64,000 bases of DNA from Candidatus Kerfeldbacteria bacterium. GTDB taxonomy: Bacteria > Patescibacteriota > Patescibacteriia > UBA10025 > JAHIVO01. Below, piece by piece: positions 18,929 to 46,799 of this stretch. Location: NCBI GenBank assembly GCA_047946875.1, contig CP181398.1, positions 777,041 through 841,040 on the forward strand, in the 5' to 3' direction. A program made the position numbers and the translations under genes. Each line of letters starts with the position of its first letter. The first letter of the stretch is position 1. The notes under the pieces were generated by a model. That model saw nothing but the letters and a program-made list of their open reading frames with translations, made no database searches and was not told the origin of the DNA.

Positions 18929-18948
18929 AATATAAATAGTCCTATGAA

Positions 18949-19229: not shown

Positions 19230-21701
19230 TTACTTATCATCTTCAGGTGCAGAAAGATTACCTAAATCTGACGGTAAATCAGGAATATTTTTATCCTTCC
19301 TTACTTTAGTTTTTTTTGCTTTATCACTCTTTTTATTATTTTTCTTTACTGCTTTTTTTGTAACTTTTTTTTCAGCTGGAGGATTAACATCATTTTTATC
19401 ATCATCATTTGGATCTTTATCCATTACCACTTCTTCATCTTCAAGATGTATCTGCACATCTTTTTCATTCAAATGTTTAACGACCGTTTCTTCTTCACCT
19501 TTAACTTTCTTGTTAAGTTCTGCCGTAAAATGAATTGATCCACGATATTTTCCAATTGAAACTGTTTTACTATGGAAACTAGAATATCCTGATTTAACTA
19601 TAACTAAATAGTATTTACCAGATGGCAACAATGCATTAAATTGACCTCGTGAATTAGTAACTTTAGTAGCCACAACCATGCCAGTTTCTACATTATAAAT
19701 TCTGATAATTGCCATCTCAATTGGGTCTTCTGTATCCTTATCTTTAACTACACCCAAAGATTTACCAAGCCTCTTATTAATCAATGCTCTTAAAGCTAAT
19801 AATACTCCATAAAGGGATAAGATAACAAAATTACTTGTCTTTGGCTGTATAATTAAAGTACCCCAACTCAATAAAGTACCTACTATTAATAACGGTATAC
19901 TTATTTTTTCTAAGATATGACCAATATAACTAATAAATCTTAACCATTTTAATCTGCCTGGCGATATTGCTTTCATATTTGGATCTAACGGAATATTCAT
20001 CGCAAAAAATCCACCCTCTTTACCTTCAATTTCTAAAGTGTCCCCACGATAAACGTTATCATACTGACTAACAGAATCTGTCTTTAAGACATGGGATGGA
20101 AAGACATAACCAGGAGAACTAGCTGTAACAAAATATTTTCCTTTATCAATAATAAAACCAAATCTACCTTGACTATCAGCAATCTGACTTTCTTTTAACT
20201 TATTAAACTCACGGGTAAATATCTTGATAATAGCTCTAGGAATAGGTTTACCACTAATACTATCAAAAACCGTACCCCAAGAACGACGTTTTTTTCCTAA
20301 CATTATTGGTACAAGCCAGAAATATCCAAACCTGAAGAATAAATATAAAATATTATATATATTTGAGGTAGTGGCTACAACCAAAGCAATTCCAGTGGCA
20401 GCTATAACTGCTGAAGTTGCCATCACTGGTGTAACAACTGTTTCTACTACCTCGACAATCCCTTCATTATTTTTCAAAGATTTTAATGCATCGCCAATTG
20501 CTTCTGTAAAATCACGAATAGGTGCAGGTATAATACTATTAAAAGTATCTACTATTTTTTCAGCTAAAGGTTTTGCTAGTTCATCTATCTCTTCAATTAT
20601 TACACCTGGCTTAGCCTCTGGATCTATAATAATAAAACTATTACTAGCGCTCGTAGAATTACTCGCATTATCATAAGCTATAGCAGTCACTGAATGACTA
20701 CCTATTACTAATTCTGGTAAAGTAAATGGCGTAGTATCTCCAATATTAATTCCTACTGGATTACCTTGATCTGTTATTAAATCATAATGATGAATTCCTG
20801 ATGTATCGTCAGTAGTTTCAAAACTAATACGAGGATTTGTAACGGTAGTCCTTTTACCATCAAGTAATGTGATAGGAAAATTATTTGGAGGGGTTGTATC
20901 AATTTGTACTTTAAAGTGACTCGTAGGTCCCCAACCATCTTGATTTTGTGCACGAATATGGAAATACCATACTCCATCTCCAGTACCAACAAAACTAGTA
21001 GAGCTATCCGTAGTATCTACTATTTTGTCAGGGATATTCTCAGCCTGATCATCAAATGAAAAGCTATAACCAACATTATCATTCTCAGTTGACCATGAAA
21101 AAGATGTATCTGGATTTGCATACCAGGAATTCTGATCTGGGTGAGAAGATGAAGAAATAGTAGGTGTAGTAGGTAATTCTAAATCTGGTTCTGGGGGCTC
21201 TTCACCTGGCTCAGCAATAACATAAGTACCAGAGCCTGTACCACTCAACAAATCAGTGCCAACTGTAGCAGCTTCGTTGGACAGAACCAACGCTCCACCC
21301 ATCGTCGCATTTGCCGTCCCAGCTGACTTAGTTCTAAAACTAATTGTAAGCACTAAACCTGAAGTTCCATTATATCCACCTGCCAGACCACCTGGTAACC
21401 CGCCAGCGAATGTAATAGTACCACTAATATTTGAATAATTTGGAATTACTGGCCATAAAGTAAAAATACCACTACTAGAAACATTTGTTACTTCCAACAA
21501 GTTGGTCGGAAAAGATACTGTAGCCTGAGCAGCATTCATCGACTGTCCTCCAGAATTTACATATAATCCTACATTAAAACTATCACCAATCTCATATGAA
21601 GAATTTGAAGGACTAAAAAATAGAGTAGCTGCCTCAGCAATGTTAGGAGCAAACAATAAACCAAATATTAATAATATAGCAACAAAAATCTTTTTTGCCA
21701 T
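19230..21701 (-). CDS. Membrane-anchored surface protein. Domain order: N-terminal signal peptide, cohesin-like domain, FN3/Ig-like beta modules, TM helices, two carboxypeptidase-regulatory-like (transthyretin-fold) domains, K/D-rich C-terminal tail.
   Basis: ATG at 21701 (MAKKIFVAILLIFGLLFAPNIAEA) lies 8 nt after a GAGGG motif. The ORF track starts 22 codons upstream. The cohesin-like signature SFNVGLYVNSGGQSMNAAQATVSFPTNLLEVTNV is present, plus CarbopepD_reg-like stretches GKPIPRAIIKIFTREF...DSQGRFGFIIDKGKYFVTASSPGY and GMVVATKVTNSRGQFNALLPSGKYYLVIVKSGY. Confidence 0.6.
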   Translation of the reverse strand: MAKKIFVAILLIFGLLFAPNIAEAATLFFSPSNSSYEIGDSFNVGLYVNSGGQSMNAAQATVSFPTNLLEVTNVSSSGIFTLWPVIPNYSNISGTITFAGGLPGGLAGGYNGTSGLVLTISFRTKSAGTANATMGGALVLSNEAATVGTDLLSGTGSGTYVIAEPGEEPPEPDLELPTTPTISSSSHPDQNSWYANPDTSFSWSTENDNVGYSFSFDDQAENIPDKIVDTTDSSTSFVGTGDGVWYFHIRAQNQDGWGPTSHFKVQIDTTPPNNFPITLLDGKRTTVTNPRISFETTDDTSGIHHYDLITDQGNPVGINIGDTTPFTLPELVIGSHSVTAIAYDNASNSTSASNSFIIIDPEAKPGVIIEEIDELAKPLAEKIVDTFNSIIPAPIRDFTEAIGDALKSLKNNEGIVEVVETVVTPVMATSAVIAATGIALVVATTSNIYNILYLFFRFGYFWLVPIMLGKKRRSWGTVFDSISGKPIPRAIIKIFTREFNKLKESQIADSQGRFGFIIDKGKYFVTASSPGYVFPSHVLKTDSVSQYDNVYRGDTLEIEGKEGGFFAMNIPLDPNMKAISPGRLKWLRFISYIGHILEKISIPLLIVGTLLSWGTLIIQPKTSNFVILSLYGVLLALRALINKRLGKSLGVVKDKDTEDPIEMAIIRIYNVETGMVVATKVTNSRGQFNALLPSGKYYLVIVKSGYSSFHSKTVSIGKYRGSIHFTAELNKKVKGEEETVVKHLNEKDVQIHLEDEEVVMDKDPNDDDKNDVNPPAEKKVTKKAVKKNNKKSDKAKKTKVRKDKNIPDLPSDLGNLSAPEDDK

Positions 21702-21726
21702 AATATCTACCCTCTCTCTTATATTT

Positions 21727-22881
21727 TTAATCTTCTTTTTTTGGTTGTGAGCGAACTTTAAATGCAAGAAATAATAGTAGTAAGATAATTATACTTATAA
21801 CTATTATTAAAAATAATGAATAAACTGTATCATCTCCAAAAAATGGACTCTTATTTTCAAATGGAACTATACCTAAATTTTTCTGTGTATAATTACCAGC
21901 TCGATCAAATGCAGTGACTGTAATAAGATTACTTCTACTTTGATCTTCTAAAATATATGGTGATGTGACATGGGTTGTAGATTTGTCACCTTCTTTAACA
22001 TCATAATAGTCAATACCGGAGCCTTTGTCAGTGGTAGAAAAAATTAAAATATATTTTCCATCATACAAAGTTGGTTCTTTTGAAATAACTGTATCAATAT
22101 CTAATGGTGCCTTACTATCAATCATAGCTCTCCTCTTACCAATCACTTCCCAATCTCCATCACCTATTTTTTCTTTCAATATAAAATAATATACTCCATC
22201 AGCTAAATCAGAAAAATTGACTTTACCGGTCGTTGATTCTCTATTATTATCAGGTTCTTCATCTGAATAATTACTCAAAATATAACTATAGATTGCATCT
22301 TTCTTTTGCTCCCACTCAACATTAAAATTATTATTTTTATACCAAGTACTCTCTTCTGGATGAGTAGAAGATTCAATATTAATAAATGTTGTATCGCTTA
22401 CACTAAATATTCCTGAAATTTTATTTAATTCTACCTCTGTCCCCAATCCATCATTTAGTAAGACTTTTGTACTTTCATTATCAAAATCTACTTCACCAAC
22501 ACCTGGAATTTTTGTTTTGAAAGTAATTGTTGCAATCTTACCATCTAATACCATGCTACCGCCGGGAATTCCGCCAGCTAATGAAATAATTCCCGCTGAT
22601 TCCTCAACAATCGGTTCTTTTATCCATAAAGTTAAAAAAGAGCCCCCACGTGATACTTTAACAACTTCCAATAAATCTGTTGGATATGTTATTGTTGTTT
22701 TTACCGCATTAATAATTTCTTGCTCACTATTCAAATGTATTTCAGCTAAAAAAGTTTCCCCTTTTGCAAATTCTTTTTGTACGGGATTTACAGAAATTAT
22801 TGCAGCCTGAGCTTGACTGAAAAATATTACACCAAAAATAATTAGTGGTAATATGATTAAAGTTTTTTTGAATGTAAACAT
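21727..22881 (-). CDS. Secreted cohesin-like domain protein with FN3/Ig-like module and a C-terminal TM anchor; paralog of the N-terminal part of the 19230-21701 gene
   Basis: ATG at 22881 (MFTFKKTLIILPLIIFGVIFFSQAQA). The track's 22908 is a TTG start. Cohesin-like signature EIHLNSEQEIINAVKTTITYPTDLLEVVKV...ISLAGGIPGG parallels the neighbouring gene. C-terminal hydrophobic SLFLIIVISIIILLLLFLAF is followed by KVRSQPKKED. Confidence 0.55.
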   Translation of the reverse strand: MFTFKKTLIILPLIIFGVIFFSQAQAAIISVNPVQKEFAKGETFLAEIHLNSEQEIINAVKTTITYPTDLLEVVKVSRGGSFLTLWIKEPIVEESAGIISLAGGIPGGSMVLDGKIATITFKTKIPGVGEVDFDNESTKVLLNDGLGTEVELNKISGIFSVSDTTFINIESSTHPEESTWYKNNNFNVEWEQKKDAIYSYILSNYSDEEPDNNRESTTGKVNFSDLADGVYYFILKEKIGDGDWEVIGKRRAMIDSKAPLDIDTVISKEPTLYDGKYILIFSTTDKGSGIDYYDVKEGDKSTTHVTSPYILEDQSRSNLITVTAFDRAGNYTQKNLGIVPFENKSPFFGDDTVYSLFLIIVISIIILLLLFLAFKVRSQPKKED

Positions 22882-22895
22882 AATATTATAACAAT

Positions 22896-23807
22896 TTATT
22901 CTGTCCAATAAAATAGCATGATACTAAAGTCAACAATATTTACTATACCATCACTATTAATATCTGCTCTTTCATTAGCAGGATTTGCTGTATTCCAATA
23001 AAATAATAAAATACTAAAATCAACTAAATTCACAAAAGTATCACAATTAATATCCCCAGGTAATGCGCCATCACAAATATTTGGCTCATCAGCCGTTACA
23101 TTAAATATAACACTTTTACTAAATTCTGAGACCGCATCATTTACAGGTTCTATGGCTTGAGCCTTTGCCTCATGAGAGCCTTCTGCTAAATCATCAGCAT
23201 CATATAACTGTATCCATCTACCATTTGTATCAGCACTGGCTATACTTACTGCAATATGTTGTTCTCCAGCCGCAGCCCCGACCACTGGTGATGTTAATGT
23301 TACATTTACTTCACTATCAGGCACAGTAGTCCCTGATAAAGTAATAGTTTCACCACTAGAAATATTGGTTTGATCAGCTTCGATTGTCGGTCCTAAAAAG
23401 ATACCGCTGATCGTAGTAGTAGTACCTGTAGTTAAGGTTAATGTAAAATTTGATTGTTTACCCTCTAAACCATCTTGATCAAGACCAATCACAGAAAAGG
23501 TATAAGTGCCTGGATCAATAATTGCAGAAACTTCAAAGATTGCCTGAGATGTTGTAGAAATAATAGACAAAATTGATCCATCCTGACTAAAAGTCACAGT
23601 AGCAGATGGATAAGCTATCCCTCGAAATACAACTGTAGTATCTGGATCTTCTAATGGAGGTTCAGAAGCAACTGTAGCTGTAACAATAACCTGCTGAGAA
23701 GATTGTGCATCTACATAAGATACAACAGAATATCCCGCGACCAATAAGATCAGCGGGATAATCAGATATACAAAAAATTTAATTAAGTTAGGTCTTCTTT
23801 TTTTCAT
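22896..23807 (-). CDS. Secreted Ig-like/beta-rich protein with a C-terminal type-I dockerin domain
   Basis: 303 aa. N-terminal signal-anchor. The C-terminus carries two calcium-binding dockerin repeats: GDINCDTFVNLVDFSILLFYW and ADINSDGIVNIVDFSIMLFYW (D-x-N-x-D-G-x-V-N-x-x-D-F). Confidence 0.7.
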   Translation of the reverse strand: MKKRRPNLIKFFVYLIIPLILLVAGYSVVSYVDAQSSQQVIVTATVASEPPLEDPDTTVVFRGIAYPSATVTFSQDGSILSIISTTSQAIFEVSAIIDPGTYTFSVIGLDQDGLEGKQSNFTLTLTTGTTTTISGIFLGPTIEADQTNISSGETITLSGTTVPDSEVNVTLTSPVVGAAAGEQHIAVSIASADTNGRWIQLYDADDLAEGSHEAKAQAIEPVNDAVSEFSKSVIFNVTADEPNICDGALPGDINCDTFVNLVDFSILLFYWNTANPANERADINSDGIVNIVDFSIMLFYWTE

Positions 23808-23811
23808 TCAC

Positions 23812-24810
23812 CTATTTTTTTGCTTTTTTTATTATCCAAGCGTTATACTTTTTAAACAAGAATATTAATAATAATATCCCAAATACAATTACTATAAACC
23901 AGACTAATAATAAACGCCATGGCATGACCCAAAAAGTAACAGTTCCCGTATCTGAAACTATTTGGCTAGTTCCCGCGGTAATACTCAGAGTTGCTGTGTA
24001 TTTTCCAAAAGCAAAATTATCTTTTTCATTTCCAAATTCTTGCCAAAAGTCTGACCAAAAATTACCTGATACATTATCAACATTACCTTTTTCCCAAACA
24101 ATATCATATTTTCTGGTTGATTTTGGTAAAGTAGCACCTTTACTTGCATTGAAATCCAAAGTATCTGTAGTCTTACCAAATAAATTATTAATTTCTACAT
24201 TACCAACCGGTTTCAGATGAACATTACCAGTATTATTAAATCTAGAAACAAATCCTACAGGCAATCTATTAAACATTTTTTGACCATCTTCTACTATAAA
24301 TTCACTGATTGATCCCTGCTCATTAACATCACCCTCTACACTGGCCAAAATCAATGTACCAATTTTGGAGGCAACTTTAACCTGACCTTCTTCTGGTGCT
24401 GCTGAAGTAAAAAATAATGCTGCATAGTGACCACCTGGATCTGCATTTATCGGAGGATTAATAATAACCGAGACTTCATACCTTTCTCCAGATTCAATAA
24501 CAATAGGTCCTTCTTCGACATTCATCCAAGTACTTAAACCTATAGACTCAGTATTAAAGTCAAAATCAGGTTGACCAGTATCATCTTTTGCTGTGAAACT
24601 TCTAGCCTCTGTATAAAGCTCTATTGTTTCAGATGTTTCATTAAATAACTTAATAACTGTATTTACAGCTTGACCAGGTGTTAGACCTAATTCTAAAGTT
24701 GGAGGAATTAATGTGATTGCTTGAGCGGATGGAGCGATCCCAAAACCTATAATTGCAATAGCAAAAATAAACGCTATATAAATAATTTTCTTCTTAAAAT
24801 GTTGAAACAT
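23812..24810 (-). CDS. Secreted beta-rich cell-surface protein with C-terminal TM anchor (CscA/DUF916-like architecture, tentative)
   Basis: 332 aa. Signal peptide ending SAQA; conserved core ...PGGHYAALFF...KIGTLILASVEGD...; C-terminal LLLVWFIVIVFGILLLIFLF followed by KKYNAWIIKKAKK. Clear paralog of 24833-25768. Confidence 0.5.
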   Translation of the reverse strand: MFQHFKKKIIYIAFIFAIAIIGFGIAPSAQAITLIPPTLELGLTPGQAVNTVIKLFNETSETIELYTEARSFTAKDDTGQPDFDFNTESIGLSTWMNVEEGPIVIESGERYEVSVIINPPINADPGGHYAALFFTSAAPEEGQVKVASKIGTLILASVEGDVNEQGSISEFIVEDGQKMFNRLPVGFVSRFNNTGNVHLKPVGNVEINNLFGKTTDTLDFNASKGATLPKSTRKYDIVWEKGNVDNVSGNFWSDFWQEFGNEKDNFAFGKYTATLSITAGTSQIVSDTGTVTFWVMPWRLLLVWFIVIVFGILLLIFLFKKYNAWIIKKAKK

Positions 24811-24832
24811 TTTTTTTATTTTAACTAATTAT

Positions 24833-25768
24833 TTATTCTTGCTGTGGTGTCTCATTCTTACTAGATTTCTTAGACATTTTAATGATTAAAGCAATCAATA
24901 AAATTAATACTAGAATGATAACAATAACTATTACTATACCCGTAGTAGTCATTACCCAAAATTCAATAGCTTCCGTATCTGTTACAGTGCCGTCTGTCAT
25001 AGTCAATGTAGCTGTGAATTTACCAAAACCAGTAACATCCCAATTTGCAACTGCAAACTCTCTTACAGATCCTGCTAATATTGCACCTTTTTCGCTATTT
25101 ACTGCAATTGATTCAACGTCTTTACCAAACATATCTGTAATTACTACAGTACCAGCTGGTTTTATATGAGCTTCACCAGTATTTTTAAAACGTACTGCAA
25201 ATTTTACGGCACCATCAGAATAGTTTGTTTTATCTGAAGTAAAAGTAGCAATACTACCTGCTTCAGTATAATCTCCTGCTACAGTAGCCATGAATAGAGT
25301 ACCTAATTTTGACTCTATTAATAATTGACCGTCTTGTTGATCAGGTAATGTTTCATTAAAGAATACTGCTACATAATGTCCTCCAGCTGTTGCATTTGCT
25401 GGTGTATCAAAAGTCACAGTTACCTCTTGAGTTGCGCCAACTTTGATTGTAATAGGACCTTCATCAACATCTACCCAAGTAGCAATACCAGTTTGAGCAG
25501 CTTCAAAATCAAAAGCTGGTTGACCAGTCTCGCCCTCGGCAGTAAAATTGATTACTTCTGTTTCTAATTTTATCTCTTCTTGTGTGTCATTTTTTAGTTC
25601 TACGACTGCTACTGTCTTTTCTCCCGCCGTCAGATCAACCTCCATAATAGCGGGGGTAAGACCTAAAGCTGATACCTGTGAAGGTACAACCAGCAAAGCA
25701 GCGAAGAACAGAGTAGTGATTCCTAGAAAAATAGTTTTTTTAAACATATATTCTATTTTATTAATCAT
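24833..25768 (-). CDS. Secreted beta-rich cell-surface protein with C-terminal TM anchor; tandem paralog of 23812-24810
   Basis: 311 aa. AGGAGGGG Shine-Dalgarno upstream of the ATG at 25768. Collinear with the neighbouring gene (GETGQPAFDFEAAQTGIATWVDVDEGPITIKVGATQEV...AGGHYVAVFF...KLGTLFMATVAGD). C-terminal IVIVIVIILVLILLIALII followed by KMSKKSSK. Confidence 0.5.
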   Translation of the reverse strand: MINKIEYMFKKTIFLGITTLFFAALLVVPSQVSALGLTPAIMEVDLTAGEKTVAVVELKNDTQEEIKLETEVINFTAEGETGQPAFDFEAAQTGIATWVDVDEGPITIKVGATQEVTVTFDTPANATAGGHYVAVFFNETLPDQQDGQLLIESKLGTLFMATVAGDYTEAGSIATFTSDKTNYSDGAVKFAVRFKNTGEAHIKPAGTVVITDMFGKDVESIAVNSEKGAILAGSVREFAVANWDVTGFGKFTATLTMTDGTVTDTEAIEFWVMTTTGIVIVIVIILVLILLIALIIKMSKKSSKNETPQQE

Positions 25769-25835
25769 TAATATCTACTCCCCTCCTAATTGTTCTTAAA
25801 TGAATATTTAAGTGAGAGTAAAAAATTTAGTTAGC

Positions 25836-26852
25836 TTAAAATAAACCAGTTGTAACTAAGGTTACAGTGTTGGTATAAGTCCCGGCTTCAGTTGTACCAG
25901 CAATGGATGCCAAGAAACATAATGTAGTAGCATCAGTTGAAACAGCGCCAGTTGCAGCAGCAAAAGTCTGAGGAGAAGCAGTTAATGCTGTAGCATTTGA
26001 TGTAGTTCCTGTATCAGCACAAGATGTTGGACTCCAAATACCTATCGTATTACCTGAATCTGAAGATGAAGCACCAAATTCTTCTGTACCAGCAACGATA
26101 GTACCGCCAGCAGTATCAGAAATAGTATCAGAAGCAACTGAAGTTAATGTATTATCGTAATATACTGTAGAACTATATCCATTTGCAGCATTAGTAGTAA
26201 CTGTTGAAGTAATACCATCTTGTGAGATCAAGGAAGCTGATAATGTCCCAAGATCAATAGTATTGGCACTTAAAGCTACTGTAATTGTTGGTTCAACATC
26301 AGCCGAAACAACTACCTGATCATCAGCTATAATATCTACAGCTACTTGTTGACTATCAATTACTGCCTGAGCAGCAGTTCTAGTCTGAACGGTAATAACT
26401 CCAGTAGTACCGGTAGTTGGTGTACCAAGAGCACCAGCTCCTGAATCAGTTATTAAAACACCGTATTCAGTGGAGGCAGTTAAATTAGTAACCCCTGTAA
26501 TAGTTAGAGTATCTGGTGTACCAGCACAAGTGGCAACTAATGTACCTGGCAATGCATTTGCACCATAGGTTGTACTACCAGCAGCAATAATAGTGTCAGC
26601 TGTGCGACACCATAAACCATTATCAGCAGCCGGGAAAATAATATGCACCTCAGCCTCAGTACCACTATTTCCAGCTGGGACAGTAAATACGATATTATGA
26701 CTAACTCCGCTAGTCAAACTTTGTTTTTGTCGATTCATATGATCCTCGACTGTTTCCAATGATTCTGCTTTTGCAATTTGTGCTGGCAATAACATTACCA
26801 TAACAAAAATCGCCATAAACATTACCATGGACATTTTTTTGAGTAATTTCAT
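25836..26852 (-). CDS. Secreted T/S/G/A-rich surface protein whose C-terminal ~150 aa are homologous to the C-terminus of the 4784-aa giant protein (WxL-like cell-wall-binding domain, tentative)
   Basis: 338 aa. Signal peptide MKLLKKMSMVMFMAIFVMVMLLPAQIAKA. C-terminal TIDLGTLSASLISQDGITSTVTTNAANGYSSTVYYDNTLTSVASDTISDTAGGTIVAGTEEFGASSSDSGNTIGIWSPTSCADTGTTSNATALTASPQTF... aligns residue-by-residue with the giant protein's C-terminus. Confidence 0.6.
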   Translation of the reverse strand: MKLLKKMSMVMFMAIFVMVMLLPAQIAKAESLETVEDHMNRQKQSLTSGVSHNIVFTVPAGNSGTEAEVHIIFPAADNGLWCRTADTIIAAGSTTYGANALPGTLVATCAGTPDTLTITGVTNLTASTEYGVLITDSGAGALGTPTTGTTGVITVQTRTAAQAVIDSQQVAVDIIADDQVVVSADVEPTITVALSANTIDLGTLSASLISQDGITSTVTTNAANGYSSTVYYDNTLTSVASDTISDTAGGTIVAGTEEFGASSSDSGNTIGIWSPTSCADTGTTSNATALTASPQTFAAATGAVSTDATTLCFLASIAGTTEAGTYTNTVTLVTTGLF

Positions 26853-26969
26853 AAGTTTTCTTTATTAATTAACTTATTTTATTAATTTATTAATATTACT
26901 TTATTATTATATCATACTTTTTAAGAAATTGCAACCTAATATATAAATTTTACCACAATATTACAGCTA

Positions 26970-29900
26970 TTAATATAAACTTGTAGCAACTATTGTAATA
27001 GTAGAAGTATAAGCTCCTGCATCAGTTAAACCGCTAATAGAACCTAATATACATAATTCTGTTTGATGAGTGCTAACAACACCTGTGGCCCCTGCAAAAG
27101 TCTGAAGTGAGGTCGTTAAAGCGGTAGCATTCGATGTAGTCCCCGTATCTGCACAAGAAGTAGGACTCCAAATACCAATATCATATCCAGATCTCGATGA
27201 AGATGCACCATATTCCTCTGTGCCAGCTACGATAGTCCCTCCTGTAGTATCAGCAATCGTATTACCTATTGAAGTCAATGAATTATCATAATAAACCGAT
27301 GCTTGATATCCATTGGACGCATCAGTACTTACTGTCAGAGTCACTCCGTCCTGACTTACCAACGACTCTAATAATGTACCAAGATCAATACTGTTTGGAC
27401 TCAGGGATACTGTCATACCTACGAATAACCAACAATCGTTATTTTGAGAATTTACATTTGTCCCACCGGTAGCATCTATAGTATCTCCTCCACAAGCATA
27501 CGAATCTTGAACATCAGTATAAGTAACTATCTGCGTACCATCACTAGTCAGATTCCATTGAGTACCTGGAGTTGATGAGCGTAAAGTAACTAAGTTTCCA
27601 GAGGTGCCATTGAAACTTACGTTATTAAAAGTATAAGTACTACCCGCATTAAATTCTAATTGGGTATTGGCGGTATCAGCCGTGAAATTATTATCAACAT
27701 CAGCGGCTGCCGCAAAATCAACATCCGGATCAGAAGCGCCAGCATTTGTAATTGTAAGATTATAGAATCTATCGGAAGTACCAGTCATTTGACCCGATAA
27801 TATTTGCTGAGAAGAACCGTCTAGATAGACTGTACCGGACTGATCAGTGAAATTATCATTATTAGTCCAATCTCCCGCAAGATATATTGCATTGTCCTCT
27901 CCACTTTTTACATCTAGAGTACCACCGGTTATTAATAAATCATTATTTATATCAAGAATGGATTCAAGGGTAAAGGTAATATTATTTCCCGTATCATCAA
28001 AAGTAATATCATTGAAGTCGTCTGTAGTAGCGCCGGTAGAATCTATTGTCGGTGATCCGCTTGTAGCATCAAATGTTATAGTACCCGATCTGCATAAAAA
28101 TATATCATCATTATCCCAGCTTCCGCCAACTGTGATCGCATTATTTTCACCACTTACCGCATCCAGATGACCGTTTGTAATTGTAACGTTGTTAAGCACA
28201 ACTAACGGATCTTCTACTTCAACAATTAAATTATAAGTGCCAGCACCGTCATCTATAACGAGATTATAGAGTGAGCCAGTACCAGCGGTAATAAGATCAC
28301 TGGTTATATCACTCACAGAAGATGGTATATTAAAGGTTAAAGTAGAACCGACATTCGTTCCAGCGCTATTTAATAATGAAGCGCCTGACTGTAAATCAAA
28401 CTTACCATCTGTATTCATCTGTGTGCCATCTGTTTCTACATCATCATCAACATCCAAAGTACCGCCACCCGAGCCAGCATCAGTGGAAATAGTAATGCCA
28501 CCCAAACCAATATCAAGATCATATCCATTTGTATTAAGTATATCACCATCATTAATAGTTAGAGTTTTAGCTAATAAATCACTGGCTAGATCAGTGGTAT
28601 CCGGAGAAGTACCTATTTCCAAATTACCGACATCCTGCTGTGGTGAAGTATTGTCCGTAAAGGTCAAATCCCCATCCAGTATTAATTCTCCTGTTCCAGC
28701 GGTAGCGTTATTAAATGTCGTTCCGGACGCCAAGGTAAAATTACCTGCAGCATTGAGATTGCTATCTACTTCCTGCGTAAACACACCCGTATCGGCTATA
28801 TCAAACGTACCATTCACATCCATTGCATCAGCGCTAGCAACACTGCCAGTACCTGACACCTTAAAATTCTGCAATGTTTGGCTGGCTGAAGTAACGGTCT
28901 TTGTCGCGCCGGTCATGTCAATTGTCGATGTTCCAGCAGTGACTGTACCACCGGTCATATCAAGATTACCAGCCATGGTATGAGTAGCATTTGCCAGGGT
29001 AACAGAGCCTGAAAGAGTTAAATTTTGTAATGTCTGTGAGGCGGAAGTAAGGGTGCCAGTGCCATTCATTACCAAAGTATTACCTGAAGTAGCCGTGTAG
29101 GTTCCGTCAGTAAAATTCACATTACCGGAAACAGTCCAAGTTCCAGTGCCTGAGGTAATTATTTCAGATCCATCATCCGCACCGATGAAGTCAAAATCTC
29201 CCTCAATATCAAATGCTGGATTATTCGTCACGCCGGCAAACGTAACATTCTGTGTGCCGTCAGCTATGATATATAAATTACCGTCAATATCCTGGGTTGC
29301 CGTTGCAAGCGGAGTAATCGTGTACGGCGTGCTGTTATCATCATTAAATATTTCCACATCACTGCCATATGTGCGCGCGGGCATAGTCGTGGTATTGCCA
29401 TTTGATGTATCAAAGCGCACCAGTGAACTTAATGTACCTGCAGTAGGTATCGTGGTACCGGAATTAATAGTCAGACGGCCGGCGCCAGAAATCGTACCGT
29501 CAAGCGTGAAACCGCTACCGGTCCATGTGACCGTTCGGCTTGTTTCGATAGCAAGTGAATCTCCCGTATCAACATCAAGTGTATTGCTTACTAACGGATC
29601 GTCAGCCCCCGTATCAGTATCAACGGTGATCGTATTCGTCGTTGCACCGTCTCCAATGGTGAGATCATAAAATGTAGTGTCGCCCAAACCATTAATATCA
29701 TGGCTTGCCACGTTTTCACCGGTAAGTGTTACACTACCGGTCCCCGGGGTAAAATTTCCACTGTTGTTTGTCCAGTCACCCTGTACTTCCATTGCTTCAC
29801 CTTGTGCATCAAAATATATACCACTATCAAGTGTGTAGTTTCCCTTCAACACCAATAATTGCTGGCTCGCGTCATTACTCAATAAACACGGCGTACCGAC

Positions 29901-32900
29901 CGTACCGCGGCTGATTTGCAGATTATAAAATTCAGGCGCATCATCACTCCACTGGTACACCTGGCCTTGAGCAGAACTCGCGCCTGACGGATCATCAATG
30001 ACTATAGTCCCGCCGGTAACCGTCGTGGTAGTAAGTGGTTTCTCATTGTACACGATAAACGAACGGCCAGTTAATGTACCGCCGGTCATATTAAAAGTTA
30101 CTGTCTCTCCGCCGTCATTATGCCGCGCGAGTTCAATGGCTCCATCCGCAACAGTACTCGCCCGCACCGTTCCACCCGCCAGCGTGATTATCCCCTGATT
30201 CAAATTAATGTTAGTACCAACATCCACGCTGCCGTCATTGAAATTAGTAATCTGCGAATTACTTCCGCGCATGTTTAACGCACCCGTAACATCAACATTA
30301 GCTCCTGTATTGAAATTGAGAGTACCGGCTTCTTGCCAAATATTGCCGGCAACCGTCACTGCGCTTGCTATTGTTGCTGTACCACCATTAACATAAAAAT
30401 TATCCTTAACATCCACGGTTCCGCCACTAAACGAATTGGTGCCGCCGTTTATTATTAAGTCTTCTGTCGTACCATTACCAATCGTGAGTGTACCCGCGGT
30501 AACATTTATATTCCCGGCAGATGTTATATTATCTCCATTTACTGTTGCGTCGGCACTCACATTAAGTGTTGCATTCGCATCAATGTCTATATCCAGACCA
30601 ATAATCGATGTTGCCGTATCAAGATGAACTGTGGCATTGTCATCAATGTGCAGATTACCGCCAGTTGCGTCAGTGGTTACCATACCGCCAGGATCAAATG
30701 TATCACCGGTCCACGCATGCAGCTCCATGCCCGACTCTGTTGTCAGCGCGCCCGCAATAACCGCATACCGTATGCCAGCATCAGCATTATCACCGGTCAA
30801 TAACTTAGCGTTTGTCATTGGCCCGGCATTCTCATGTCGAACAATCATCCTATTTTGGTATAGATTAAGTCCGGAAATATTCGACGATATGTCAGCCGCT
30901 AGTGTTGCTGTAGTCGCATGTGGTGTTTCGCTATTATCAATATAGAGCACTATAGGATCGCCACCAGCTGTTGGATCTGTTGCCGGGATAGTGAACGTAC
31001 CACCTGCACTATCGCATTCATACTCGGATGCAGTTCCGCCGTTTGTTGCCGCGTGGACTGTCAATGGATCTGCGGAACAGTCATACACACTTATACCATC
31101 ATCACTGTAAATCGTTCCGGTCAACGTAATACCATCAAATATCCAGCAGTCGTTATTTCCGGAATCAGTGTTGGTGCCATTTGACGCATCAATCCAGTCG
31201 CCGCCGCACGCGTACGAGTACTTTACATCAATGTATGATACATCGGTCTGCGTGCCGGTTACCACCAAATTCCAGTCGCTGGTCGTAGAACTTTGGAACG
31301 TTATTTCATTTCCGACACCTGAAGAACCGGCCCAGTTGATATTTGGAAACGTATACGTCGATCCCGCTTCATATTCAACAGTAACGCCCGCTGTTGTAAT
31401 TGTATAGTTATTTTCGGTTTCAACGGCTGCTCCGAAATCAACAGTTCCGCCACTATTGGTAATAGTTAGGTTATAAAAATCAGAAGAACCTGTCATAGTG
31501 CCTGACAATGACTGAGTAGAAGAACCGGCCAAAACAACAGTTCCATTGTTATCAGTAAACGTGCCATTATTGGTATAGTTACCATTAATATCAAGTGTTG
31601 AACTACTGGAAGCAGATAGCGTGGTAGCAGTATCAATACTCACGTCTCCACTCACTACTAATGATGGATCGTTGGTATTCAAATCTACCGTGGTTGCGCC
31701 GGTACCATCTTGGATAAGTATTAAATCACCAGAGATTGGATACGACCCCGATGCGGCTGTAATAGAATTTGATGAATTACTTCCATACAACTCCACATCC
31801 CCTCCGTACGTACGGGCATCAAATGTAGTATTGGCAATATTACCAGCACTGGCATCATAGCGGACAATACTATTGATCGTTCCTCCCGTGCCAGGACCAG
31901 CGGATGTATCAGTAAACCTAAGTGTGCCAGCTCCTTCAACAGTACCTAAATTAGCAAAAGTTGAGCCGGTATGTGTTACTGTACGACCAGCGCCAATCGA
32001 GAGTGTACCACCCGCACCAAAATTTCCATAAGCACTACTGATTGTGAAATCCGTATTTATAACCGAGATAGCTACATCAGACGCCGAATCAAGTTTGAAA
32101 TCATAAAAAGTTTCCCCGCCAACATCTATAGTATTGTCAGCGCCATGCATTATAACTTCTCCGGTCCCTTCTATTAAATCTGTCAGATCGGCCTTAATAT
32201 ATAGATCACCATAAACACTTATATCGCCACTGATATCATAGGTGCCACCACTATCCGGATCGAGCGAAAGATTATCAAAACTTCCACCCCCCGACACAGT
32301 TACTGAGCCAGTATTAGTAAATTTAAATGTTGAATCCTCTGTCGTTTTATTAACTATAACCATACTTGTTATTGGTGTACCACTTCCTGACATTTCCCAT
32401 GTCTTAGCGCCACCTGCTGCAGCTGAAAGTTTAGCAAACCAAACATCGTCCCCTGCTCCAGCACACGTATCCCTTGCTAATGTATTTGTTATCTTGATAT
32501 CACCACTACCCGTAGCTGACAGTATTCGATCTCCACTACACGCCCCTATAATATCAAAATATAAATCATAAAATGTCCACGTACTACTATTGCCACCAAT
32601 ATTACCTGCAGCGGGCAGCCCAACAGTTACTGTCCCACCGGTCATTGTGATAACGCCATCACCTGTAATATCCCCGCCGTTGGCGGTAAGATCGTTTGAA
32701 CCGGTCAGTGTCGTGCCGGTACCAACGGTGACATCACCGTTTGTAGTCAGCGCATCAGCTAAGGTAATGGTGCCGGTACCGGATGTCTCAAAATCATACA
32801 GAGATTTACCCGCCGCGGTGAGTGAGGGAGTAACACCGTCCATTACCAAAGTATGCCCAGAAGTGGCTGTAAATGTATCACAATTAGTAAGGTCTACGTT

Positions 32901-35900
32901 ACCCTCAATGTTCCAGGTTCCAGTGCCGGTATTAATCGTGTTAGTAGACGCTCCGCAGGAGAAATTGCCACCAACGTCTAAACTGACATTATTATCAGCA
33001 CCATCAATCGTTACGCTGTTAGTCCCGTCACCAATTGTTAGGTTATTATTTATATCATTAGCGAGAGCAGAAGCATACTCAAATGTGTATGATGGTGAAC
33101 CTCCTGACGGTATTAATTCTAAGTTATAGTAAGATCCTCCAGATCCATCTCTGGCAATGTCTGTATCCCCAGTACCGGTGTACTGAAAAGTAGAAGTATT
33201 TCCTATTAACCTCCCCTCGTTAAAAAAAGGCATAGTCTCATCAGTAGTACCAGATCCTGAAAGAATCCATGTTTTTTCACCGGCATCCAATGTATGAAAT
33301 CGTTCTATTACCTCACAAAAATCCCAGGTTGTGATCAGCTGATTGGTAATGGTCATACTGCCAGTCCCAATAGCCGTCGTAGTATATTCACCACATGGAA
33401 GTTGCGTAAAAGAGAGATTATAAAATGTCCAGTTGCTGTCTCCGCCTATAGTCCCATCCGTAGACAAGGTTACCGTACCGCCGGTCATATTGACCGTACC
33501 ATCACCAGTCAGGTTACCACCGTGAACAACCAGAGAGCCAGTACCTTGCACGGTGGCACCGGTATCCACATACTGATTACCACCAGTGCCTGACGTGGTC
33601 ACCCCACCACCCGGATCATAGGTATCACCAGTCCAAATATGCAATTCAAATTCTGAATCAATAGTCACGTTATTTGAATCAACCTTAAACTTAATATCGC
33701 TATCACCTGTATCCCGATCGCCTGACTCAAGATTGGTGTTGGTAATAGACGCTCCAGTATCATTCCTGACAATGACTGCGGCCGCGTACACATCAACATC
33801 AGCTGTATCAGTTCCGTCAACCTTGAATGCAGTTGTTCCTTCATAGGTGCCGTGATCATCCAGGTAAATAGTGACAATATCTCCGCTTGAGGATGCAATA
33901 CTGCCGACTGAATAATCCCCATTGCCATCCGTAGTACCAAAATTCATATTATTACCATTAACATTCACCTGAACTAATATGCCAGAACCGGCATTCGTTG
34001 ACTTATTCTCCTGATACACCGTGCCACCAATGGTAATAATATCGCTAAAAAGCCAATTCGTATTGTTTCCACAATGAGTATTAGTCCCGTCATCAGCATC
34101 AATTTGAAAACCAGTATCTGTTGCATCAGACCGCGACACATCCACATACGAAACCACACTAGTATTAGCTACATCCAGAAGCCATGTGCCGGAAGTAAGG
34201 TTTGAATTTCTAAATACAATATCATTACCGGAAGAACCAGTCCAATCAATATTAGTGAACGCATATGTAGATCCAGAATTATATTCCACTTTTACGTTAT
34301 CATTAACGGTAAAGGTGCCGGTAGCTGTAGCTGCGGCCGCAAAATCAATACCAGGGGTAAATGAAGTAGCACAGCCAGAAACACTTCCAGTGGTATTAGT
34401 AATGGTCAGGTTATAAAAATCAGAGGAACCGGTCATCGTACCCGATAAGGTCTGTTGCACGGTACCGGCCAAAACGACTGTCCCGCTGTTGTCAGTAAAC
34501 GTGCCGTTATTGGTATAATCGCTCTTTAAAGTTAGGCTAGTACTGCTTGGCGCGGAAAAAATCGTATTAACGCCAATAGTGATAGTCTTGGTAAAATTAA
34601 TAGTTGGATCGTTTGTATTCAGATCAAAAGTAGTGGCTCCAGTTCCGCCCTGTATCAGTTCCAAGTCTCCATAAACATTATATGTACCCGCTGCTGATGT
34701 GACCGTATTAGAAGAGTTATTACCATATATTTCAACATACAGATAATCACGAGCTGACATCGTTTGGCTGTTGCTTGACGAATCAAAACGCACGATAATA
34801 TTAGTTGCAAATGCTCCTGTTGTTGGGAATGCGGCTGATGGTTGGTAGACCAAAGTGCCATTACCCATCACGTAGCCGTCGAAAGTAAATGATCCCGTAC
34901 TCGTTACAGTCAAAGAACGATCTATACTAATATACAAAAAATCATTAGTGTTAACGTCAAGCGTACCGGTAACGATAGGATCATCAGTGCCCTCTATTGA
35001 TACTGTACCTGCAGATCCATCACCAATAGTAAGATTATTAAACGTGGTATCACTTGAGCCATTTATTGCAGGAGAGCCTGTCATGGTAACGGTACTTGTA
35101 CTTGCTGTAAAGGTGCCATTATTATCCCAATTACCATCCAAGCTATATGTATTAGCTCCATCTGAGGCAAGTGTGCCATCAATACTAATAGTAACATTAT
35201 GCGCGTTCATCGTTCCTGCGGAATCCATAGTTAATGTATCATCAGCCAAAATATCTATGGTGTCGTCAGCATACGCACCATCTTCATCCACATTCAATAC
35301 ACCCGCATTGGCAGTATGCATGATATTGCCATTTTGATCATTATCATAAGAGCCCAGCTGGGTAACAGTTAATGTCACTCCAGTATCAGCACTTCCAACT
35401 GACAATACGTTCTGATTTAGTACCATGCCGGTAATATCATCCGCACCGTCATACTCTGTAACAGCAGTAGATTGATCCCCATCTGTCGCTGTGTCAATGA
35501 ATACGGTTATTACTTCTCCTCCTGACAAAGCTGGGTCCGTATCAACATTCCAGGCACTTGCGCTTATTACGAAACTATCAGCTTGCAACACACCATTGAC
35601 TGCAATTTTCACCGTACCGGAAGAATTTGATGAACCTGCAACATTTGTATTAGATGAAGGAAAAGTCCAAGCAGTATTATTGCTACAGTCGGTGTTAGTA
35701 CCGTCATCAGCATCAATATCCACACCGGGAGTAGCATCAGACCATGACACGTCCACATAGGAAACAACACTTGAGTTGGTCACATCCAAATCCCAAGCGG
35801 ATGAGCCCGTTGAACCTTTGAAGTAGATTTCATTTCCAGATGAACCCGTCCAATCAATATTAGTAAATGCGTAGGTTGATGTGGAATTGTACTCTACGTT

Positions 35901-38900
35901 TGCATTGTCATTAACCGTGAAAGTACCTGTAGCCGTAGCAGCATCAGCGAACACAATGCCAGCAGTAGTAAATGATGCGCAGCCCGTGACAATTCCGGAT
36001 GTATTTGTGACAGTCAAATTATAAAAAGATTCTGAGTCTGATGTTATGGTTTGTGTTGATGAACCATCCAAGACAACCGTATTTCCACTGGTGGCAGTAT
36101 ATGTCCCGTCTGTAAAATCAATGGCTCCAGATACAGTCCACATACCTGTTCCAGAAGTTATAATCCCAATTCCAGAACCACCACCACCATAAGCTAATAC
36201 ACTTGTAATATTTACTGTTGGGTTGTACGTTCCGCCGTCAAGAGTAATATTTTGCGTATTTTGCGCCGAGACATACAAGGAATTCGAAAAATTTAGAGTT
36301 TGACTTGCACCAGTACCTAACATAACTGTACGTGCATTGGTGGTGCTATTATTGTACACCTGAACCTGATGGCCATACGTACGCTGTGACAATATTTGAT
36401 CATTAAACGTAGCGTCCATCCTGAGCGACGATGAAAGCGTTCCAGTCGTAGGGAAAGCTGATGAAGGCTGATATGCAAAAAGTCCACCTCCTGAAATCGT
36501 ACCATCAAGCGTGAGTGAACCCGCATTACCAAGCGTAACAATATTTGAAACGCCAAGTGATAATGTATCACCCGAGTCTATATCAAACGTACCCGTAACA
36601 GTTGGATCTTCAGATCCACCCACTGTTACTGTCCCTGCGGTCCCATCACCAATAGTAAGATTATTAAATGTAGTATCACTAGCGCCATTTATAGAAGAAG
36701 TTCCTGTCATAGTGACTGTACTTGTATCAGCTGTGAAGGTACCGCCATTAGTATAATCTCCTGCAATACTTATAGCACTAGATCCTGCAGTAAACACGGC
36801 ACTACTATTAATAACTAAATCCCCTCCAATAGAAAGGGCTTCATTAGTGGTACCAAATGTTTGAGAACCGTTAATAGTTAAATCATTCGCAACATTGAAT
36901 CCCAAAGAATTCACATCAATAGTCGTAGTATCTGCAATCACAATATTATAGAAACTTACACCGGCCTTACGAATATCAATTCCTCCTACTGAATTATCAT
37001 CATCAATAATAAAAGTTCCCCCTGATATAGTGCCCCATCTAGCCAGCGCTGTATTCGACAAATTTATCTCCTCTGTGGTAATTGTACCTGATCCGGTCAT
37101 GGTAAAATCAAGACCTGTGTCATTTGGAGCCATATAAAAATATCCGGAAGGACCTACAGAATGAGTACCACCATTGAAATTGAAATCACCTTCATTTATT
37201 ACCCAGTATCCAACTTCCGTAACTACAGACCCTGCATTCAGATTTAATACACTTGTTGCCCCGTCAAGAGTAACTCTATCTAGAATATCCACATCAGCGC
37301 TACCACTTATTGTTGCCGTACCACCAGTCAATATAAAATCATCACCAATATCCGTGGTACCACCACTGATATTCACCGCACCTGATGTCATATTTAAATC
37401 TTCTGTAGTGCTATTACCAATTATAAAAGTTCCAGCGGTATGATTCAGAGTCCCTCCACTTACCAAAACTTCATTAGCTTCTACGATTGTAGAATTTTGT
37501 ACATGAAGCGTACCTCCGGATGGAACATCAATATCTCCAGCAATAACATTACTAATCGTATCAAGATAAGCAGTCCCTCTGACATCAAAATCTCCAGTTA
37601 CACTAGTCGTAGTAATCCTACCATTTGGATCAAAAGTATGACCAGTATATACAAAAAGTTGAATCCCTGTCTCCACAACCAAAGTATCAGTTATTGCATC
37701 TATAGCATCATAAAGCATATCTACTGAGTTTTGGTCATTATCATATGCATCCATATCGTCAACATTTATACTGGTTCCTTGCTCATGCCTCACCATTACC
37801 GTATTTTGATATATTCTCAAATTATCTCCGGTAACTATATCCCCTCCGTCACTAACAGTAACCGTATTACCCAATATTGATCCGCCGTCAATATAAAATG
37901 TCAGCTGGTCTCCTGCGCTGGTAGTAACTCCGGTAATGGAAAAATTACCACTAGAATCGGTTGCATCACAATCTCCGCCCGCAGTCGCATTTACAGCCAC
38001 ACAAACACTAGTACCTGTAGTAATTGGGGTTCCTTCAGTATCATCAGTATAAGCTATACCATCAAAATCATAGCCACCGCCACCACCGCCACACGATGTA
38101 CATTCAGCTAATATAAAATTAGTTTGAAGTGGATCATGCGCGGGGGCATTATATCCAGACAATGTAATATCATGCTTATGACCAGCTGTTGCAAATTGAC
38201 TACCTGCGCTTGCACTACCATCTATACCTGCTGAATCTCCTGAAGTCCCAACTGTATTTGAATGAGCAACTCCAGCACTACCACTAGTAGTACCTGAGCT
38301 ATCTGCTGTTTGGATATATCTGTTTTGATAAGGACTAGTGTTAGAGATAGTAGTCCAACCAGTTGGTGGGGTTCCGTCAAATAGAGCAATCATCCCAATA
38401 GGAACAGATGGTGGTGTACCATTTTGCTCATATAATTTAAGAGTTACATATTCAGGTACTGATGTAGCACTAGCCGTAGTAGTAGGAGTGCTAGGTGCAG
38501 CATGAGTATGAACTATTGCATCATGGACATTGGGAGTAATTCCTGAAAATACACCGACACTACCTGAACCAGCGTTAAGAGACCCCCAGGTAACTCCGTG
38601 TGTATGAGTATCACTTCCACCGGTCGTATGTGATGAGTCAAGTTTCACTAAGCGACTATCGGCCGCTGAAAAACGTACCCAAGGACTAGATGGTTCTGAT
38701 CCAGTCTTAAAAAAAGCGAAAGCATCAAGCGGTATAGTGCTTGGCGTGGAATCAAGTGAATCATAACGATAAAGATAATATGTATAATGTGCCGGATTAT
38801 TATCAGCAGCTGCCACAGTAGTAGTATTAGCTGTATGAGTATGAGCTCCTGTCGATATCAACGTACATCCTCTTCCACATATAGTATCTGGACCCGTACT

Positions 38901-46787: not shown

Positions 46788-46799
46788 CTTTATAAAAAT

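Follow-up and report, generated by a model that had tools for sequence, protein, structure and literature searches.

Why should a giant surface protein of 4784 residues and its secreted neighbor of only 338 residues end in the same domain? The two proteins are encoded side by side in a 64,000-nucleotide stretch of the genome of a Candidatus Kerfeldbacteria bacterium (GenBank assembly GCA_047946875.1, contig CP181398.1, positions 777,041 to 841,040 of the forward strand), which we call the window and to which all coordinates below refer. NCBI taxonomy places Candidatus Kerfeldbacteria within the Parcubacteria group of the Patescibacteria, or candidate phyla radiation (CPR). An attached life on other microbes is generally assumed for these bacteria, and little is understood of the way in which they hold on to their hosts. 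A sequence-only reading of the window had pointed out the common domain, had likened its layout to that of WxL domains, and had proposed that it serves as a common site of anchoring or oligomerization. The analysis reported here indicates that the domain is related to the strand-accepting domain of Pam pilins and that the genes around it likely encode a pilus of that kind, with the giant as its candidate tip.

The giant and its neighbor share one collinear domain

The giant gene (26970..41324, minus strand; TTG start) and the gene for the 338-residue protein (25836..26852, −) were present as open reading frames (ORFs) as the sequence-only reading had described them, and the C-terminal domain (CTD) common to their products was confirmed where that reading had placed it. 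In a BLASTP comparison with compositional adjustment, residues 190-338 of the small protein (25839..26285, −) and residues 4637-4784 of the giant (26973..27416, −) were identical at 104 of 149 positions (70%; 84% positives) with one single-residue gap (E = 3e-62), and the DNA encoding the two domains was also collinear. Cys4724 and Cys4758 of the giant are conserved with Cys278 and Cys312 of the small protein. Threonine, alanine, and serine account for 23%, 14%, and 13% of the domain, respectively, and a resemblance of composition only, which the earlier reading had named as the result that would overturn its proposal, was ruled out by this collinear alignment and by the selectivity of a CTD hidden Markov model (HMM). 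Among 294 six-frame ORFs of the window, the HMM matched the small protein (E = 6e-63) and the giant (E = 4.5e-50) only, with the next ORF at E = 0.7. The CTD is the sole region that the two proteins have in common, as a profile of the N-terminal domain (NTD) of the small protein found no match in the giant.

A CTD profile search of 1.84 billion representative proteins retrieved 2393 cluster representatives at E ≤ 1e-3, and the domain ended exactly at the protein C terminus in 244 of the 259 domain-bearing sequences examined. Giants of 2100-3400 residues, annotated as hypothetical, were among the best matches, the named sources being Kerfeldbacteria, Parcubacteria, and unclassified metagenome-assembled genomes. 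In a small neighbor-joining tree with CTDs from the window, from genomes L002 and L008, and from P0002/P0078 and P0010/P0100, the CTDs of giants and those of their small neighbors formed separate groups among close relatives, and the duplication that produced them is thus old, with both copies maintained. In the more distant genomes V1916 and L008, the CTD of the giant was nearest to that of the small protein of its own genome, a pairing that suggests co-evolution of the two sockets or occasional gene conversion between them.

Both copies of the domain show homology to Pam pilins

Pam pili are CPR pili of Candidatus Mycosynbacter amalyticus, the filaments of which were solved by cryo-EM (bioRxiv 10.64898/2026.03.03.709456). 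In the pilins PamA and PamB, one linker strand connects a β-sandwich NTD to a truncated immunoglobulin-like (Ig-like) CTD, which accepts the linker of a neighboring subunit, and the donated linker and the CTD groove are the most conserved parts of the pilin (bioRxiv 10.64898/2026.03.03.709456). The pam operon also encodes PamT, which has an acceptor domain only and is the proposed tip, the PapD-like chaperones PamC and PamD, which have a C-terminal transmembrane (TM) helix, and PamR, an RbmA-like protein that has a strand at its N terminus and is anchored by a TM segment (bioRxiv 10.64898/2026.03.03.709456). NCBIfam contains Pam models NF058578, NF058579, and NF058581, the last of which (CPR_Pam_pilin_C, 'Pam pilus system pilin subunit') was derived from this 2026 preprint.

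Several results tie the shared domain to these pilins. First, NF058581 aligned with both CTDs over positions 3-148 of its 148, with E = 1.1e-10 (41.8 bits) for the small protein and E = 6.2e-7 (29.6 bits) for the giant. Second, the same model matched 48 of 59 aligned family members (best E = 6.7e-14), and the PamT model also matched 9 of the 59. Third, a distant homolog (P0142) of the 311-residue chaperone-like protein of our locus, which is described below, lies inside a canonical pam operon that adjoins ATP synthase genes and encodes PamT (285 bits, cutoff 240), a Pam pilin (173 bits with NF058581, cutoff 55), and PamR (384 bits, cutoff 300). Our CTD HMM matched the pilin, PamT, and a third pilin of this operon (E = 1.7e-11, 6e-8, and 5e-5, respectively), and our NTD HMM matched the NTD of its pilin (E = 1.8e-4).

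Homology of the CTD to Pam pilins is supported by these matches. The shared domain is likely, in our view, to be the Pam pilin CTD that accepts the donor strand, an incomplete Ig-like fold with a groove that would be completed by a strand from a neighboring subunit. The idea of a common anchoring or oligomerization site gains support in this form, with the site being the acceptor domain through which pilus subunits are joined and which the Pam model spans from end to end in both proteins.

The 338-residue protein has the architecture of a Pam pilin

The 338-residue protein, which we propose to be a Pam-type pilin and shaft subunit, consists of a signal peptide (residues 1-29), an NTD (30-173), a linker (174-189), and the CTD (190-338). 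Its family comprises 140 Patescibacteria proteins, mostly about 330-380 residues long. An AlphaFold2 (AF2) model with a mean predicted local distance difference test score (pLDDT) of 91.6 contained a helix at residues 3-21, two β domains, an unpaired segment at residues 174-189, and CTD strands between residues 190 and 336. Ten DSSP strand segments were present in residues 35-173 of the NTD, with those at 82-84 and 86-92 being adjacent, and the cysteines form the pairs Cys82/109 and Cys278/312. The protein thus has the signal peptide, roughly nine-stranded NTD, linker strand, truncated Ig-like CTD, and paired cysteines that characterize Pam pilins. Foldseek matches of the model to integrin, SdrE, Als, PapG, CsuE, and FimH had TM-scores below 0.3 and were set aside as not diagnostic.

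The linker IIADDQVVVSADVEPT (26286..26333, −) is the proposed donor strand and corresponds to the strand donated by PamA and PamB in the cryo-EM filaments. It is the best-conserved segment of the pilin family (mean conservation 0.69, versus 0.57 for the NTD and for the CTD), the best 12-residue conservation window starts at residue 178, and in the AF2 model the linker is extended and unpaired, with a pLDDT of about 92. The 117-bp gap between the giant and pilin genes contains a promoter-like site (26906..26934, −), TTGCAA-17-TATAAT with a TG immediately upstream of the −10 element, which was the best site in the region and is defined by a consensus match only (10 of 12 positions). With such a site, more pilin than giant could be produced.

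The giant as a proposed acceptor without a donor strand

The giant is composed of an N-terminal helix-turn-helix (HTH) domain, a hydrophobic segment, a long, repetitive, β-helix-like body, and the C-terminal Pam domain. Pfam searches of the giant matched only the HTH_17/MerR-type DNA-binding domain at residues 29-77 (E = 3e-5; 41094..41240, −) and nothing in the 4600-residue body. The hydrophobic segment that follows the HTH is 31 residues long and ends in VQA|DE (40857..40949, −). A cytoplasmic-type HTH thus stands ahead of the export signal of the giant, and the same HTH and hydrophobic segment are present in the 3391-residue giant of L008.

Directly before the CTD, in the place occupied by the donor linker in pilins, the giant has a two-cysteine junction module, DSYACGGDTIDATGGTNVNSQNNDCWLFVG (27417..27509, −). 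This junction, with the pattern DS.AC...IDA..GTN....N.CW.F, also precedes the CTD in unrelated giants of 2200-3400 residues from other genomes; CTD proteins of 600-960 residues retain a linker of the form QV.I[ST]A.V[DE]P before the domain. A relaxed version of the linker motif did not occur anywhere in the 4784 residues of the giant. The giant and the pilin were the only CTD-bearing ORFs in the window, and no PamT was found there. Because the giant would accept a strand and has none to donate, it could occupy only the distal end of a donor-strand fiber, as an acceptor at the tip, which is also the place that the preprint proposes for PamT. We consider it rather probable, from this arrangement of domains, that the giant is the distal tip adhesin of a Pam-type pilus.

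A dockerin protein carries the pilin linker motif at its mature N terminus

If the giant marks one end of the fiber, a 303-residue protein (22896..23807, −) is a candidate for the other. It has a signal peptide, a putative donor-strand motif near its N terminus, Ig-like domains, and, at its C terminus, a type I dockerin (residues 250-297; 22917..23060, −; Dockerin_1, 32.4 bits, cutoff 22.9). Its family contains 302 Patescibacteria proteins, many of which are encoded on the same contigs as pilins. The sequence immediately after the predicted signal-peptide cleavage site, QSSQQVIVTATVASEPP, includes the motif QVIVTATV (23670..23693, −), which matches QVVVSADV of the pilin.

The link between these motifs depends upon three observations. 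First, six-frame ORFs totaling 39,610 residues contained just two occurrences of the pattern Q[VI].[VI][ST]A.[VI], one in the pilin linker and one at the N terminus of the 303-residue protein. Second, of 120 homologs of the 303-residue protein, 108 had the strict motif directly behind the signal peptide, and only 5 had it elsewhere. Third, the protein P0382 is a natural chimera, in which a pilin NTD (E = 3e-22) is joined to the body of the dockerin protein (E = 5e-70), and the two alignments overlap exactly on ATDQITVTATV. A 25-position linker HMM, which was too short for the purpose, did not detect the N terminus of the 303-residue protein in hmmsearch.

In P0382, the anchor module stands where a pilin would have its acceptor domain, the order being NTD, linker, Ig domains, and dockerin. 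P0371, P0384, P0385, and P0403 are in the same 439-460-residue range as P0382 and match the 303-residue protein.

Two membrane proteins encoded next to the dockerin protein are candidates for its anchor. A 393-residue protein (21727..22908, −) has an N-terminal cohesin-like domain (22.7 bits, cutoff 24.1; 28.7 bits for the L008 ortholog) and a C-terminal TM helix, visible as a hydrophobic tail in the translation. The second candidate, an 845-residue protein (19230..21767, −), has an N-terminal cohesin-like domain (21.9 bits), hydrophobic segments, and CarboxypepD_reg domains (64.5 bits); in its orthologs, the cohesin match reached 38.0 bits (L002) and 25.5 bits (L008). On balance, we lean toward the prediction that the 303-residue protein is a donor-only terminator, with a dockerin that ties the fiber to the membrane cohesins. 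As in the anchoring scaffoldins of clostridial cellulosomes, a type I dockerin gene stands beside genes for cell-bound proteins with cohesin domains. By contrast with cellulosomes, nothing enzymatic is attached here, the dockerin protein bears a pilin donor-strand motif, and the cohesin proteins of this predicted pair would be held by TM helices rather than by surface-layer homology (SLH) domains.

Two paralogs are homologous to Pam chaperones and to WxLIP proteins

Between the pilin and dockerin genes lie the genes for a 311-residue protein (24833..25768, −) and a 332-residue paralog (23812..24810, −), which are 39% identical over 305 residues (E = 2e-67) and are both conserved in the related genome L002. 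Both proteins begin with a signal peptide, contain two Ig-like domains, and have a TM helix at the C terminus. With the AF2 model of the 311-residue protein (pLDDT 84; helix at residues 275-305) as the query, Foldseek found CsuC (E = 6e-10) and the WxLIP structures 9i1y/9i25 (E = 8e-10), followed by CfaA, Caf1M, PapD, and DraB, with the matches to CsuC, CfaA, Caf1M, and PapD spanning E = 6e-10 to 6e-7. Sequence comparisons gave the same relationship. PF06030 (WxLIP_PGBD/DUF916) matched 21 of 24 members of the chaperone family (best E = 5.5e-9), the best match of the family profile among PDB sequences was EfmWxLIP1 (9i25/9i1y; E = 3.8e-5), and hhalign aligned the family with five WxLIP proteins from Listeria and Enterococcus plasmid records at 98.2% probability (E = 3e-14) over 211 columns that cover both domains.

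The 311- and 332-residue proteins are therefore chaperones of the PamC/PamD type and homologs of Firmicute WxLIP (DUF916/DUF3324) proteins. PapD/FimC-like chaperones with a C-terminal TM helix are a feature of Pam systems that this locus possesses in the form of two paralogs, with P0142 as their homolog in a canonical pam operon. The relationship between Pam chaperones and WxLIP proteins is not mentioned in the Pam preprint.

Gene order and a model for assembly

The locus (19230..41324, −) has the order giant, pilin, two chaperones, dockerin protein, cohesin protein, and cohesin protein. The order of giant, pilin, chaperone or chaperones, dockerin, and two cohesins is conserved in L002, with a pilin 79% identical to that of the window, and in L008, with a pilin 46% identical. 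The syntenic giants, of at least 7660 residues in L002 and 3391 residues in L008, also end in the CTD. In L008, a gene for a 527-residue protein (18342..19925) stands between giant and pilin; this protein has weak glycoside-hydrolase-like Pfam matches and no match to the CTD, NTD, or chaperone models.

What was observed for the locus itself is the homology of its domains and of its chaperones, the domain architecture, the shared motif, and the conserved gene order; polymerization by linker strands was seen in its homologs PamA and PamB by cryo-EM. Taken together, these lines of evidence make it likely that the locus encodes a complete, Sec-dependent, usher-less donor-strand pilus. In the assembly that we propose, the 338-residue pilin would polymerize into the shaft, with its linker DDQVVVSADVEPT filling the CTD groove of the subunit ahead. 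The giant, which has an acceptor CTD and neither an NTD nor a linker of the pilin type, would be joined to a pilin with nothing distal beyond it and would thus place its adhesin at the tip. Before strand exchange, the 311- and 332-residue paralogs would hold subunits by strand complementation. The 303-residue protein would donate its N-terminal linker motif to the last pilin and, having no acceptor, would end the fiber, and its dockerin would plug into the cohesins of the 393-residue protein, the 845-residue protein, or both, in place of the TM anchor of PamR.

The proposed pilus agrees with the M. amalyticus system in having a pilin with a β-sandwich NTD, a conserved linker, a truncated-Ig CTD, and paired cysteines, in the homology of both pilin domains to bona fide Pam pilins, in being CPR-specific, Sec-dependent, and usher-less, and in having two PapD-like chaperones with C-terminal TM helices. 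The two differ in that Pam pili have been published for Saccharimonadia and Microgenomatia, whereas this locus is from Kerfeldbacteria of the Parcubacteria group; in the number of pilins, three in Pam (PamA/PamB/PamE) and one pilin gene here; in the tip, where the acceptor domain of a 4784-residue giant would take the place of PamT; and in the anchor, where PamR would be replaced by a donor-strand protein with a dockerin and by membrane proteins with cohesin domains.

A parallel also exists with chaperone-usher pili, in which the two-domain tip adhesins FimH, PapG, and CsuE combine a binding region with a strand-accepting pilin domain that has no donor strand, and PapH acts as terminator. Donor-strand complementation and exchange, an acceptor-only tip adhesin, a terminator subunit, and the chaperone fold (CsuC, CfaA, Caf1M, PapD) are features common to those pili and the assembly proposed here. 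However, CPR cells are not known to have an outer membrane, and no usher-like protein was found among the genes of the locus; the chaperones here are membrane-anchored; the strand would be donated by an inter-domain linker instead of an N-terminal extension; the adhesin region has about 4600 residues instead of about 150; and the terminator would be a donor without an acceptor, tethered through a dockerin.

Evidence that does not fit the proposed pilus

A number of points weigh against this assignment. The curated cutoff of NF058581 is 55 bits, above the score of either CTD, and the NCBI pipeline would thus leave both proteins unnamed. Three queries against PDB sequences, namely the pilin itself and the profiles of its whole family and of the CTD, found nothing meaningful at E ≤ 10, and Foldseek comparison of the pilin model with the PDB gave generic tandem-Ig matches (TM-score below 0.3). 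No protein of the locus matched PamT (NF058579) or PamR (NF058578) at E ≤ 0.1, and the ATP synthase genes that are conserved around published pam operons are not adjacent to this locus, which departs from the published operon in these three respects. The pairing of donors with acceptors is read from motifs, and the linker pattern was written after both of its occurrences in the window had been seen, for which reason it was checked on the family of the 303-residue protein. Both cohesin matches in the window itself (22.7 and 21.9 bits) fall just below the Pfam cutoff of 24.1. Finally, if the hydrophobic segment of the giant is not cleaved at VQA|DE, then the giant would be tethered by its N terminus, which does not suit a free distal tip.

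Relation to WxL gene clusters

WxL proteins, which are encoded in Csc clusters, have been described as peptidoglycan binders and not as pilins (PMC9772566, PMC10599100). A cluster of the WxL/Csc type consists of a small WxL protein, a large WxL protein, a WxLIP protein with the arrangement DUF916-DUF3324-TM, and a small LPXTG protein. A stable complex has been modeled for these clusters, in which a strand of DUF916 is inserted into the WxL protein (PMC10599100), and PDB entry 9i25, from 2026, contains a WxLIP protein bound to a long WxL protein.

The WxL comparison made by the sequence-only reading holds for the gene cluster, as WxLIP homologs are encoded downstream, and fails for the domain itself, as detailed in the next section. 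As in Csc-type clusters, small and large secreted proteins with a common C-terminal domain are encoded beside a membrane-anchored two-Ig protein, here an adjacent WxLIP homolog and chaperone, and the cell anchor is on a separate small protein. The small WxL and LPXTG proteins of those clusters share a short N-terminal strand motif, much as the pilin linker and the N terminus of the 303-residue protein do here. The clusters differ in their C-terminal domains, which have no detectable sequence relation, and in their anchors, which involve LPXTG and sortase in Csc clusters and a predicted dockerin-cohesin pair here; no ORF in the window had an LPxT[GAN] motif near its C terminus that would mark an LPXTG anchor.

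In the Listeria and Enterococcus plasmid records (L003-L007), the mature N termini of small WxL and LPXTG proteins have a motif such as Y.SNG.I.F followed by a Pro-rich linker, and the N termini of the WxL proteins match the NCBIfam EF0750_LPXTG model with E values down to 8e-7. By analogy with the pilin and dockerin protein, this Firmicute motif could be a donor strand common to subunit and anchor, which we offer as a lead and not a result.

The homology of the chaperones to WxLIP proteins raises the strongest alternative to a pilus, namely that a strand of the membrane-anchored WxLIP-like proteins holds on to the CTD permanently, as to a handle. Each paralog would then display a single CTD protein on the cell surface, one the giant and the other the small protein, and no fiber would form. 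The paralogs are true WxLIP homologs, their number equals that of the CTD proteins, and the modeled WxLIP-WxL complex and entry 9i25 provide precedents for a stable association. However, single display leaves unexplained why the linker is the most conserved part of the pilin, why 108 of 120 homologs of a dockerin protein that has no CTD carry the motif at the mature N terminus, and why a chimera joins NTD, linker, and dockerin. Moreover, the two CTD proteins of L008 are accompanied by a single chaperone, and the homologs PamA and PamB polymerize through the linker in cryo-EM filaments. We therefore judge display without a polymer improbable.

Further explanations of the shared domain

A second alternative retains the donor-strand chemistry of the proposed pilus and dispenses with the long shaft. 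The giant could be joined at the cell surface directly to the 303-residue dockerin adaptor, or to very few pilins, with the CTD acting as a general attachment socket and the 338-residue protein forming separate fibers or short stalks. The giant and pilin CTDs are 70% identical, and the N-terminal motif of the 303-residue protein should fit any CTD of the locus; the hydrophobic segment near the N terminus of the giant could hold it close to the membrane; and the pairing of giant and pilin CTDs by genome in V1916 and L008 is expected if both fit the same donor strands. PamA and PamB are abundant in M. amalyticus (bioRxiv 10.64898/2026.03.03.709456), and this abundance, together with the promoter-like site before the pilin gene, instead suggests many pilins per tip. 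Direct attachment is a variant of the pilus model in which the shaft has zero length, and no observation counts firmly against it; nevertheless, we consider it unlikely.

The sequence-only reading had also suggested comparing the CTD with the WxL and TasA/camelysin families, and neither identity was borne out. If the CTD were a genuine WxL or TasA-like cell-wall module, it would attach both proteins noncovalently to peptidoglycan. The resemblance that prompted the idea is real in outline, as the domain begins with xIDLGTL and its last strand reads YTxTxT, a layout like that of WxL domains. Nonetheless, none of the 59 family members matched the Pfam WxL model (PF13731) or the TasA/camelysin family at E ≤ 1, whereas positive controls from Listeria and Enterococcus scored 134-147 bits with the WxL model. 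Peptidase_M73, the TasA/camelysin family of Pfam, matched neither the giant nor the pilin at E ≤ 0.1. In an hhalign comparison of the CTD profile with a WxL alignment from the Listeria and Enterococcus clusters, the probability was 0.2%, and the last strand alone was aligned. Each CTD has a single tryptophan, located in WSP, and no W-x-L motif; the WxL model has 214 positions, compared with about 150 residues in the CTD; WxL proteins did not match the Pam models; and the significant matches of the family are to the Pam pilin and PamT models. A WxL or TasA-like identity is thus largely refuted at the level of sequence, and we regard it as very improbable.

Least of all, the similarity might reflect chance, composition, or a recent local duplication without common function, as a domain rich in threonine, alanine, and serine in adjacent genes could suggest, but the compositionally adjusted E value of 3e-62, the conservation of the domain in 2393 representative clusters, nearly always at the exact C terminus, and the separate clades of giant and pilin CTDs among close relatives leave this explanation next to no probability.

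What the locus would add to the Pam family

The locus probably belongs to the Pam kind of pilus. New in it are the proposed tip formed by a giant, the predicted base of dockerin and cohesins, the occurrence in Kerfeldbacteria, and the relationship to WxLIP proteins at the sequence level. We found no earlier description of a giant tip or a dockerin-cohesin pilus anchor in the Pam preprint or in the literature searched, the coverage of which was incomplete. Pam pili have been known only since 2026, and neither their tips nor the parts that bind receptors have yet been defined. Giants are common and unexplained in CPR genomes, and the locus suggests how they could be mounted, with a 150-residue socket plugging the giant onto a pilus; many CTD-bearing giants could in this way gain a first structural role. 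The locus also suggests that a pilus can be anchored through a cohesin-dockerin pair.

The sequence relationship between Pam chaperones and the WxLIP proteins of enterococci, listeriae, and lactobacilli leads to a testable donor-strand hypothesis for the little-understood WxL surface clusters. A broader and distinctly tentative idea, which we think has less than an even chance of being right, is that Pam pili and WxL/Csc clusters are two branches of one ancient, usher-less, chaperone-assisted donor-strand system of single-membrane bacteria. If so, such a system would be modular, with a small subunit that both donates and accepts, a large acceptor-only tip, and a donor-only terminal subunit with an interchangeable anchor, which would be a TM helix in PamR, a dockerin and cohesin here, and LPXTG in Firmicutes; WxL proteins would then be pilin-like and not primarily binders of peptidoglycan.

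Neighboring genes

A signal peptidase I gene (18058..18708, −) lies directly downstream of the locus, as it does in L002 and does not in L008; it may simply be housekeeping LepB. Immediately upstream of the giant is a gene for a family 2 glycosyltransferase (41485..42195, −), the place of which is taken by a family 4 enzyme in L008, followed by a divergent gene for a LytR-CpsA-Psr protein (42278..43762, +). Glycosylation of the serine/threonine-rich pilus proteins is possible, and modification of a PamA serine has been seen (bioRxiv 10.64898/2026.03.03.709456). Approximately 4 kb from the Pam-type locus are type IV pilus genes encoding a T2SSE-family ATPase and PilM (45714..47855, +); two or more pilus systems are probably present in this organism.

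At the start of the window are two further giant genes in tandem (1..5269, −, and 5308..15252, −). A segment of about 4.4 kb in the first (roughly 700-5100) recurs with 100% identity at 10725-15125, offset by 10,025 bp. Either the 5′ part of the gene for the 3314-residue giant was duplicated in tandem very recently, or the repeat is an assembly artifact. The N terminus of this 3314-residue giant (14803..15252, −) matches the VirB2-like type IV secretion system pilin family T4SS_pilin (PF18895; 50.3 bits, cutoff 26.6), and the remainder contains Big_7, BNR/sortilin-like, and DUF6242 repeats. Giants of this genome thus appear to be fused to filament subunits of two kinds, with a T4SS pilin at the N terminus of the 3314-residue protein and a Pam pilin domain at the C terminus of the 4784-residue protein.

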